This document shows, piece by piece, positions 1,248 through 5,367 of a stretch of DNA of 64,000 bases. A program made the position numbers and the translations under genes. The stretch is from assembly GCF_030013205.1 (NCBI RefSeq), contig NZ_CP122648.1. One strand, written 5' to 3'. Source of the DNA: Escherichia coli (GTDB lineage: Bacteria; Pseudomonadota; Gammaproteobacteria; Enterobacterales; Enterobacteriaceae). A model generated the notes under the pieces. It had not been told where the DNA came from, ran no database searches, and was given only the letters and a program-made list of their open reading frames with translations. Numbering within the stretch: position 1 is the first letter of the stretch; every line of letters starts with the position of its first letter.

Positions 1248-3509
1248 TCATCCCCGACGCAAATTCTGCGCCGCCTGCACCATGTTCGCCAGTGCCGCGC
1301 GGGTTTCTGGCCAGCCGCGCGTTTTCAGGCCACAGTCCGGGTTGACCCACAGACGCTCTGCCGGAATGCGTTTTGCCGCTTTCTTCAGCAAGGCTTCAAT
1401 CCATTCCACGCTCGGTACGTTTGGCGAGTGAATGTCATAGACGCCAGGACCGATTTCATTTGGATAATCAAACTCTTCAAACGACTCCAGCAACTCCATG
1501 TCGGAACGCGAGGTTTCGATGGTGATGACGTCTGCGTCCAGCGCCGCAATCGAATCCATGATGTCGTTGAACTCGCAGTAACACATGTGAGTGTGGATTT
1601 GTGTGTCATCTTTCGCCACGGCGGCGTTGATACGGAAAGCCTCCACGCCCCACTGGAGATAGGCATCCCAGTCGCCGCGACGCAGCGGTAAACCTTCGCG
1701 CAGTGCCGGTTCATCAATCTGGATGATGCCAATTCCAGCGGCTTCCAGGTCCGCCACTTCATCACGCAGCGCCAGCGCAATTTGTTTGGCGATGGTTTCA
1801 CGGCTGACATCTTCACGCGGGAACGACCAGCAGAGAATCGTCACCGGGCCGGTCAACATCCCTTTCACCGGTTTATCAGTCAGGGATTGCGCATATTTTG
1901 CCCACTCCACGGTAATCGGTGCCGGGCGGCTAACGTCACCAATAACAATCGGTGGCTTCACGCAGCGGGAACCGTAGCTCTGTACCCAACCGTTTTGCGT
2001 AAAGACAAAGCCATCCAGATGCTCGCCAAAGTATTCCACCATGTCATTACGCTCGGCCTCACCATGTACCAGCACATCCAGTCCCAAACGTTCCTGCTCA
2101 ACAATGGCCTGCTTGATATGTTCCGCAATGCCCGTGCGGTAGTTGTTAGCGTCGAGATTACCCTTTTTGAAATCCAGACGCAGGGTACGAATTTCCGTAG
2201 TTTGCGGGAAAGAACCAATCGTGGTGGTCGGCCACGCGGGCAGTTTAAAACGCGCACGCTGGGCTTCAGCACGCACTTCATAGACATTCGCACGCTGACT
2301 GTCCTGGGCGGTAATGGCTGCAAGACGCTTTTCTACCGCCGGATTATGGACGCGGGTAGAGTGACGACGCGCCTGAATCGGAGCGCTCCACTCTGCCAGA
2401 GCTGCCGTATCACCACTGTTCAGCGCATCGCGCAGCAGTGCCAGTTCATGGCATTTTTGTAGGGCGAAGGCAAACCAGCTTTTCACTTCTGCATCAAGAC
2501 GCGTTTCCACGCTCAGGTCAATGGGGCTGTGCAGCAACGAGCAGGAAGATGCCACCCACAAATCGCGTTTGCCGACAATGTCCTTAATTTGCGCATATTT
2601 CTCGGTAAGATCGGCGCGCCAGACGTTACGACCATTGATCAGACCCGCAGACAGCAGCCAGTCAGAAGGCAGACGCTTGTGCAGTTCAGCAACGTCATCT
2701 TTACCATGTACAAGATCGACATGCAGACCCTGAACAGGCAGCGCAGTAATCGTGTCGAGATTTGGCGTTACGCCTTCAAAATAGGTGGTCAGCAGCAGTT
2801 TCACCTGTCCCTGGAGCGCGTCGTAAGCGGGTTTGTATGCGTCCAGCCACGCCTGCGGCAGTTCCAGCACCAGCGCGGGTTCGTCAATCTGTACCCACTC
2901 GATGCCGCGTTTCGCCAGTTCTGCCAGCACTTGCTGATAAACCGGCAGAATGTCGTTCAGCAGGCTCAGGCGGTCAAATTGTTCACCTTTCACTTTCCCC
3001 AGCCACAGGTAGGTAATCGGCCCCAGCAGCACAGGTTTCACCTTGTGGCCCAGCGCCAGCGCCTCGTCCACTTCGTCCAGCAGCTGCGTCCAGGTCAGTT
3101 TGAACTGTTGGCCTTTAACGAATTCCGGCACCATGTAGTGATAGTTGGTATTAAACCATTTGGTCATTTCCGCTGCCGCCGCAGGTTCGCCAGTCGGCGC
3201 ACGTCCACGACCAATACGGAACAGGGTGTCGATATCTACCGAACCATCTTTGTTCTGATGACGCGCCGGAACGTTACCCAGCAGCAGACTGGTGGTCAGT
3301 ACATGATCATACCAGGCAAAATCGCCCACCGGCAGCAGGTCGATACCCGCCTGCTTTTGTTGATCCCAGTGACGGGCACGCAATTCACGCCCTACCGCCA
3401 GCAGTTCTTCACGCGTGGAGTTCCCCGCCCAATAACTCTCTTGCGCTTTTTTCAGCTCGCGACGCAGGCCAACGCGAGGGAAACCGAGGGTGTGATTAAG
3501 AATTGTCAT
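1248..3509 (-). CDS. metE: cobalamin-independent methionine synthase
   Basis: 753 aa; translation matches E. coli MetE as I recall it ([19 protein letters not shown]...). Confidence 0.96.
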
Positions 3510-3626
3510 TATATGCCCCTTATGGAATTTTTAGTATTTAGCCGTCCAGATGTTTACACATCCATAATTGGCGGTTACTGTATATTCCTCAAGCGCAAAT
3601 TATTCATGCCGAAGTGAAGGACTTTC
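3510..3626. promoter_or_regulatory. metE-metR divergent control region; palindrome TGAAGGACTTTCA at 3615-3627 resembles MetR site consensus TGAA-N5-TTCA
   Basis: Divergent gene pair with 117-bp spacer; palindrome read directly; MetJ-box-like octamers near 3548-3565 are weak matches. Confidence 0.4.
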
Positions 3627-4580
3627 ATGATCGAAGTAAAACATCTGAAAACGCTACAAGCGTTGCGGAACTGCGGCTCGCTCGCAGCCGCTGCGGCGAC
3701 GTTGCATCAGACGCAATCCGCCCTGTCTCACCAGTTTAGCGATCTGGAACAACGCCTTGGCTTCCGGCTATTTGTGCGTAAAAGCCAGCCGCTTCGCTTT
3801 ACACCGCAGGGAGAAATCCTGTTGCAACTGGCAAACCAGGTGCTGCCGCAAATCAGCCAGGCACTGCAAGCCTGCAATGAACCGCAGCAGACGCGCCTGC
3901 GCATTGCCATCGAGTGCCATAGCTGTATTCAGTGGCTGACGCCCGCATTAGAAAACTTCCATAAGAACTGGCCGCAGGTAGAGATGGATTTTAAATCGGG
4001 CGTGACGTTTGACCCGCAGCCTGCGTTGCAACAGGGCGAGCTGGATCTGGTGATGACGTCAGATATTCTGCCGCGCAGTGGCCTGCATTATTCGCCGATG
4101 TTCGATTATGAAGTGCGTCTGGTATTGGCACCTGACCATCCACTGGCGGCGAAAACGCGTATTACACCGGAAGATCTCGCCAGCGAGACGCTGTTGATTT
4201 ATCCGGTGCAGCGTAGTCGACTGGATGTCTGGCGGCATTTTCTTCAGCCGGCAGGCGTCAGCCCGTCACTGAAAAGCGTCGATAACACCTTATTGTTGAT
4301 TCAGATGGTTGCCGCGCGGATGGGTATTGCCGCGCTACCGCATTGGGTAGTAGAGAGTTTTGAGCGCCAGGGTCTGGTGGTGACCAAAACCCTGGGTGAA
4401 GGCTTGTGGAGCCGACTGTACGCCGCCGTGCGCGATGGCGAGCAGCGTCAGCCGATTACAGAAGCGTTTATTCGCTCAGCGCGCAATCACGCCTGCGATC
4501 ATCTGCCGTTTGTGAAGAGCGCGGAGCGACCCACTTACGATGCACCCACAGTGAGGCCAGGATCACCAGCGCGCCTGTAA
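3627..4580 (+). CDS. metR: LysR-family regulator of methionine biosynthesis
   Basis: 317 aa; N-terminal HTH; divergent from metE as in E. coli. Confidence 0.93.
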
Positions 4581-5367
4581 TAAACGTTGGCCAGTGCGGC
4601 TGTTGGTGCCAGATAGCCAGGTTTACCAGCAGCCCTGCCGGAACGTGCATATTATTCATAATGCCCAGCGTTCCGGCGTCTACTTGGGTTGCGCCGTAGT
4701 TCCACATAAAGTAGCCAATCCCGGAAGCCACCACGCCAAGAAACACCAGAATGCCCCATTGCAACGTGGTTTGCGGCATTTTCTGCGCATTTCCCAGCAA
4801 GAACCATGCAATCACCGCCACCAGAAACGCGCCAAGATAGAACCACGCAAAGGCGTTATGCTGTGGCATCGGGCGAGTTTCCATCAGACGTTTGTAACCC
4901 ACCATGCCGATGGCAAAAGTGATATTGGAGAGCTGCACCAGCAGCAGGCCAGTCCAGAAGTGGTCGGTAACCTGATCATAGCGAATAATCCCGGCACCAA
5001 TCACCGCCAGCAAGGCGCTAAAAGCATAGCCCCAGCGCAGACGGCGCTGACTCATGATGTCATAAATCAACGTGATGTAGAGCGGCGTCAGTACGGTGAA
5101 CAGCAACAATTCGGAGACCGTCAGGTAGAGATAGGCGCGAAAACTCAGCATATACATCACGCCGAGCTGCATCGCGCCCACCAGCATATACAGGCCGACC
5201 GTTTTCAGGCTATTGCCACGGGTACGCAGAAACGGCAAAAAAACGAGTGCCGCCAGGCCAACGCGCACCAGCACCGCAAAATAGCTATCGACGTGCCCCG
5301 CAAGGTACTCGCCATAAAAGCTAAAGGAGAAGGCCCACAGAATCGTGGTGATGATAAGTAGCGCCAC
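4468..5367 (-). CDS. yigM: EamA/DMT-family inner membrane transporter (biotin transporter in E. coli)
   Basis: 299 aa, highly hydrophobic; position between metR and yigL matches E. coli. Confidence 0.8.

Follow-up and report, generated by a model that had tools for sequence, protein, structure and literature searches.

The metE-metR intergenic region of Escherichia coli: a probable MetR operator that overlaps the metR start codon

[quoted passage not shown] The consensus bound by MetR is TGAAnnTnnTTCA, an interrupted palindrome of the form ATGAA-N5-TTCAT (PMC5002191). For the metE-metR region of Salmonella, DNase I footprinting and mutational analysis have demonstrated that MetR binds two tandem inverted repeats, and the same pair of 15-mers (ATGAA-N5-TTCAT) was recovered from E. 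coli by phylogenetic footprinting; the experimental demonstration of both sites was done in Salmonella, not in E. coli (PMC5002191). In E. coli, the distal and better conserved repeat, IR1, is assigned to position -63 relative to the metE transcription start, and the second repeat, IR2, to position -41 (PMC5002191). Binding of MetR activates metE, which needs both sites, and represses metR, a self-repression that is attributed to IR1 (PMC5002191). The same consensus and the same logic of activation and autorepression are given in a study using gel-shift probes from the equivalent sequence of the Shewanella metR-metE region, in which autorepression is ascribed to overlapping promoters (PMC13393422).

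Comparable arrangements exist for other LysR-type regulators. The GcvA-gcvB, IlvY-ilvC, and OxyR-oxyS regions resemble metE-metR in having a T-N11-A site near -65 and a weaker activation site near -40, and in that the regulator gene is divergent and autorepressed (PMC5002191). Unlike these regions, metE-metR has a MetR-specific half-site, two sites rather than three, and MetJ superimposed on the same promoters. The interrupted palindrome is also present at other targets of the same regulator, i.e., upstream of metH (TGAACAAATCTCA) and between glyA and hmp (TGCAAATTTTTCA) in E. coli K-12. Each of these two palindromes deviates at one position, and neither is located on a start codon; of the three regions compared, only metE-metR has a perfect site.

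Here, we analyse the metE-metR intergenic region in a 64-kb stretch of E. coli DNA, hereafter called the window. We consider it highly probable, from sequence comparison, that a palindrome at 3615-3627 is MetR site 1 of a control region shared by metE and metR, with the activation and autorepression scheme described above. This matters little beyond correct annotation. The locus is a classical part of the methionine regulon, controlled by MetR and MetJ; MetR site 1 is already known and its regulation is textbook knowledge. The analysis does illustrate that a reading of the bare sequence can recover a classical operator, and its practical value is a precise operator and promoter map for a common E. 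coli allele with an intergenic region of 117 bp.

Layout of the metE-metR control region

The gene metE, encoding the cobalamin-independent methionine synthase (753 aa), occupies 1248-3509 on the minus strand according to the list of open reading frames and the RefSeq annotation of a 100%-identical E. coli record. The divergent gene metR, encoding the LysR-type regulator (317 aa), lies on the plus strand at 3627-4580 according to the same list and the annotation of matching records, and homologues of MetR contain the Pfam domains HTH_1 and LysR_substrate. Both genes are separated by the 117 bp of 3510-3626. A 451-bp stretch spanning metE-metR has 100% identity with an E. coli chromosome in which metE and metR are annotated, and it is matched in 5425 of 5426 complete E. 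coli genomes. Between the met boxes and the metR ATG, no base distinguishes the window from K-12, leaving the operator without differences, whereas outside of the operator K-12 differs by an ERIC-like element of ~119 bp and by the sequence flanking the metE ATG. At its other end, metR overlaps by 113 bp (4468-4580) with the convergent gene bioP/yigM (EamA family, 299 aa; 4468-5367, minus strand), an overlap which is also annotated in K-12 and which is seen in gene calls of Rahnella, Dickeya, Yersinia, Pectobacterium, and Klebsiella.

A sequence check of the window found the palindrome TGAAGGACTTTCA base-exact at 3615-3627 on the plus strand. As originally predicted, it is an exact match to the pattern TGAA-N5-TTCA, and it is unique in the window; the further claim that its right half overlaps the metR ATG (3627-3629) is borne out by A3627, which is both the final base of the palindrome and the first base of the start codon. 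By itself, the motif is within chance expectation and its occurrence is not significant, since shuffled sequences give 1.32 expected matches against the one observed and contain at least one match in 77 of 100 cases. In an interval of 117 bp, only ~0.002 matches are expected by chance. When the 15-mer ATGAA-N5-TTCAT is searched instead, the same place is the sole one in the window with at most one mismatch (one mismatch; the best in the window). The significance of the palindrome is that this single match is placed between metE and metR and that purifying selection on it is strong. A full-text literature search with the site sequence itself returned unrelated papers only, and the annotation of the RefSeq K-12 record, in which binding-site features were looked for, contains none. 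A role of the palindrome as an mRNA hairpin was also considered and rejected, as the stem would consist of merely 4-5 A/U-rich pairs.

On the metE strand, the palindrome forms the core of the 15-mer ATGAAAGTCCTTCAC (3614-3628, minus), which would represent the high-affinity MetR site 1 (IR1), the 13-mer core on the plus strand being the palindrome itself. The weaker, promoter-proximal site 2 (IR2) is predicted at 3593-3607 on the same strand (ATGAATAATTTGCGC; two mismatches to the 13-mer core). The predicted pair shares its genes, position, and consensus (TGAAnnTnnTTCA) with sites 1 and 2 of S. typhimurium and E. coli, its members being separated by two helical turns on the upstream side of the putative metE -35 element. 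The centres of the two sites are 21 bp apart in the window, while the published positions -63 and -41 imply 22 (PMC5002191). If the centre of the palindrome, 3621, is set to -63, metE transcription would start at ~3558, 6-7 nt downstream of a conserved AATTAT hexamer, and given this start the published positions fit 3614-3628 and 3593-3607, respectively; the comparison revealed no published MetR site elsewhere in the region. The metE 5' leader would accordingly comprise ~49 nt (3510-3558, minus strand) without the ERIC-like insert of K-12, with its 5' end deduced from the -63/-41 positions of PMC5002191 and the conserved -10-like hexamer.

The conserved blocks between the genes probably correspond to two interdigitated divergent promoters with their operators, for which we infer the following hexamers and start points. 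The putative metR -35 element TTTACA (3553-3558, plus), invariant in 81 aligned sequences, is spaced by 17 bp from a putative -10 element TACTGT (3576-3581, plus), in which five of six columns are invariant in Enterobacteriaceae and which is retained as TA(C/G)TGT in Yersiniaceae and Pectobacteriaceae. On the opposite strand, a putative metE -10 element AATTAT (3564-3569, minus; four of six columns invariant) is spaced by 17 bp from a putative -35 element TTGAGG (3587-3592, minus; five of six columns invariant), which directly adjoins MetR site 2. A scan with a simple sigma-70 consensus recovered neither the metE nor the metR promoter and gave one unrelated match, which is to be expected because the promoters are activator-dependent. 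The Shine-Dalgarno sequence of metR, AAGGA (3617-3621, plus), is located 5 nt before the ATG and falls inside the centre of site 1.

Superimposed on these promoters is the MetJ operator, consisting of the three tandem met boxes AGCCGTCC, AGATGTTT, and ACACATCC at 3540-3563, assigned by consensus match and by the published K-12 call. This stretch agrees with three copies of the consensus AGACGTCT at 17 of 24 positions, which is the top three-box score in the 64-kb window, and 16 of its 24 columns are invariant in the 81 sequences. The three met boxes reported for K-12 metR/metE, 63 bp from metR (PMC3228920, supplementary file 1), are letter-identical to those of the window. The original prediction had noted candidate MetJ octamers near 3548-3565 as weak matches; the candidate is real, while the operator starts 8 bp further to the left, at 3540, and is a published three-box operator. 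It resembles other MetJ operators in its tandem 8-bp boxes, and differs from them in that each box matches the consensus at 5-6 of eight positions, making it weaker than the operators of metB/metJ or metF, for which four boxes are listed (PMC3228920). The met boxes cover the putative metE start and the putative metR -35 element, and this overlap fits MetJ repression of both genes (PMC13393422).

Conservation of the palindrome within and beyond the Enterobacteriaceae

Conservation was assessed in 80 metR loci from different Enterobacteriaceae species, which together with the window give 81 sequences. Upstream of the metR ATG, the first 90 bp can be aligned without gaps in all loci, and 59 of these 90 columns are invariant. 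Among the site 1 columns 3614-3626, 12 of 13 are invariant, the exception being 3623, which is T in 75 and A in six sequences. As a neutral reference, merely 3.75% of the four-fold degenerate sites of metR are invariant in the same 81 sequences, with a mean major-allele frequency of 0.70 (0.703). The spacer 3570-3575 evolves neutrally by this measure (0.708 vs. 0.703 at four-fold sites), showing that the control region is not simply poor in mutations. In site 2, the outer halves are invariant while the centre varies at 3599, 3600, and 3602; the invariance of the site 1 centre is explained by the metR Shine-Dalgarno sequence AAGGA inside it. Within E. coli, 5422 of 5425 genomes agree in every base of a 56-bp block (3585-3640), and loci of two Salmonella enterica subspecies (L052, L059) contain the palindrome unchanged.

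Outside of this set, the palindrome is found at -12..0 of the metR ATG in Klebsiella, Rahnella, Dickeya, Yersinia, and Pectobacterium. In the last four genera, which belong to Yersiniaceae and Pectobacteriaceae, its right arm reads CTCA instead of TTCA; the same CTCA forms the right arm of the K-12 metH site given above. In Dickeya, Yersinia, and Pectobacterium (L084, L085, L086), the distance between the two sites is larger by one base, in agreement with the remark that E. coli has a spacing shorter by one base (PMC5002191).

Four remote MetR orthologues extend the comparison, and the divergent metE adjoins metR in all four. Three of them have the palindrome at -12..0 of the metR ATG: L088 (61% identity to E. 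coli MetR; TGAAGGAATCTCA), L090 (52%; TGAGGGATCTGCA, with two mismatches), and L091 (48%; TGAATATAATTCA, a perfect match whose centre is not Shine-Dalgarno-like). The fourth, L089 (51%), appears Pasteurellaceae-like, judging solely from a neighbouring HI_1241-family gene, and has a perfect palindrome, TGAAAAAAATTCA, at -97..-85. In L089, the palindrome is 57 bp away from the met boxes on the metE side, compared to 51 bp in E. coli, and the region (456-700) contains two clusters of met boxes, the first close to metE and the second directly before metR, the latter gene having its own AAGGA. These separate clusters suggest that the control regions of metE and metR are partly separate in this organism. 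With the palindrome of L089 placed 85 bp ahead of the metR start codon, the overlap is not essential to site 1. Taken at the sequence level, the palindrome is seen to be kept as such and to track the metE promoter, and its overlap with the metR start codon appears widespread but dispensable; the main role of site 1 would be that of a MetR anchor for the activation of metE.

Proposed regulation and competing readings

The place of the palindrome, its conservation, its occurrence in orthologues, and the consensus and positions of PMC5002191 all agree with its assignment as a MetR site. In the proposed scheme, a MetR oligomer would bind to site 1, centred ~63 bp upstream of the metE start, and with homocysteine as co-effector MetR would also occupy the weaker site 2 (3593-3607), adjoining the metE -35 element, by which metE would be activated. 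The promoters would be positioned back-to-back and fully interdigitated, with metR -35 at 3553-3558 and -10 at 3576-3581, and metE -10 at 3569-3564 and -35 at 3592-3587. The same bound MetR would occupy the metR transcription unit from ~+5 to +40, and RNA polymerase at the metE promoter would also cover the metR promoter. Negative autoregulation of metR may be understood from this interdigitation, because bound MetR and the metE polymerase would both overlie metR. Finally, MetJ with S-adenosylmethionine would repress both genes from the three met boxes (3540-3563). MetR binding, activation, and autorepression are taken here from the literature, and we infer the start points, the hexamers, and the mode of repression. 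The proposal made originally, negative autoregulation of metR and shared control of metE, is in line with the finding that MetR activates metE and represses metR (PMC5002191).

The coincidence of operator and translation signals raises the question whether the 13-mer is conserved merely as the metR translation initiation region, with the palindrome being incidental and MetR binding elsewhere. AAGGA (3617-3621) and the ATG (3627-3629) do fall within the palindrome, invariance extends to the N5 centre in site 1 but not in site 2, and the frequency of the motif alone is at chance level. Given this coincidence, translation signals could contribute part of the site 1 conservation. However, invariance over 81 species whose four-fold sites are 96% variable is not normally seen in a spacer between Shine-Dalgarno sequence and start codon. 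Moreover, L091, at 48% identity, has a perfect TGAATATAATTCA on the ATG around a centre that does not resemble a Shine-Dalgarno sequence, L089 has its perfect palindrome 85 bp from the ATG and near the metE promoter with a separate AAGGA for metR, and the literature puts MetR on this consensus at -63 (PMC5002191, PMC13393422). We therefore regard a purely translational origin as very improbable. Even less credible, to a degree at which it can hardly be entertained, is a reading of the palindrome as a random match or as the target of another regulator: one match per 64 kb equals the chance expectation, but ~0.002 matches are expected in the 117-bp interval, and the palindrome is invariant, kept in orthologues, and paired with a half-conserved site 21 bp away.

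A different issue is how a genuine site 1 takes part in autorepression. Repression of metR might result from occupancy of site 2 together with occlusion by polymerase at the metE promoter, in which case the start-codon overlap of site 1 would be a by-product of packing. The putative promoter hexamers of both genes interleave within 3553-3592, and site 1 would lie at ~+26 to +41 of metR, beyond the footprint of polymerase, while site 2 would lie at ~+5 to +19. This reading is also favoured by the palindrome of L089, which is separable from the ATG, and by PMC13393422, which ascribes autorepression to overlapping promoters. PMC5002191, on the other hand, credits IR1 with self-repression, and E. 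coli shares the placement at -12..0 with orthologues of 48-61% identity, which suggests that the arrangement is favoured. Weighing both sides, we hold an autorepression without site 1 to be a real possibility, though rather doubtful; the assignment of the palindrome as MetR site 1 is shared by both views.

Length alleles of the metE leader

In K-12, the metE-metR intergenic region comprises 236 bp compared to 117 bp in the window, the difference being due to an ERIC/IRU-like element of ~119 bp in the K-12 metE leader. An alignment with K-12 shows the element to be absent from the metE leader of the window. In K-12 (L001 459-610, corresponding to 3510-3539 of the window) it contains the inverted repeat CCCCGGGAGCTTAC...GTAAGTGACCGGGG. 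The tentative name ERIC refers to a consensus of ~120 bp with a central inverted repeat CCCCxGGAGCTTAC...GTAAGTGACxGGGG. Because the intergenic lengths differ, positions relative to K-12 metE cannot be transferred to the window. The K-12 metE leader is presumably ~169 nt long, which agrees with a start near 3558, as the met boxes and metE of K-12 are 149 bp apart and 19 bp are to be added.

Both alleles are common. The long allele is present in 2100 of 5426 complete E. coli genomes and the short allele in the rest, a ratio of short to long of ~61:39. Across 79 Enterobacteriaceae species (L003-L082), the intergenic length is 114-123 bp in 39, 228-262 bp in another 39, and 186 bp in one. The ERIC-like insert at this place exists in two or more variants, and both length states are found within single genera, e.g., Enterobacter, Citrobacter, and Escherichia, from which repeated gain or loss, or exchange, of the element can be concluded.

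Regarding RNA structure, the short leader of the window shows none upon folding (-1.6 kcal/mol, z = +1.4), and the fold of the K-12 leader centres on the ERIC-like inverted repeat, not significantly better than shuffled sequences (z = -1.6). When the K-12 region was searched against Rfam, all matches were sub-threshold (Ysr49, V_AS5), and thus no known RNA element was identified in the leader. It is conceivable, albeit unlikely in our view, that the overlap of the palindrome with the metR start codon is itself selected, by fixing the length of the metR leader or by coupling operator and translation signals, and, as a separate matter, that metE leaders of 49 and ~168 nt differ in metE expression or mRNA stability.

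The alleles also differ on the side of the metE start codon. The window (3510-3530) contains AAGGGG 7 nt before the ATG, and in K-12 (L001 459-480) ~18 extra bases supply AGAGGAAG, with a degenerate version of the window-like stretch further upstream. This different flank of the metE ATG implies that the two alleles are distinguished by more than a clean insertion.
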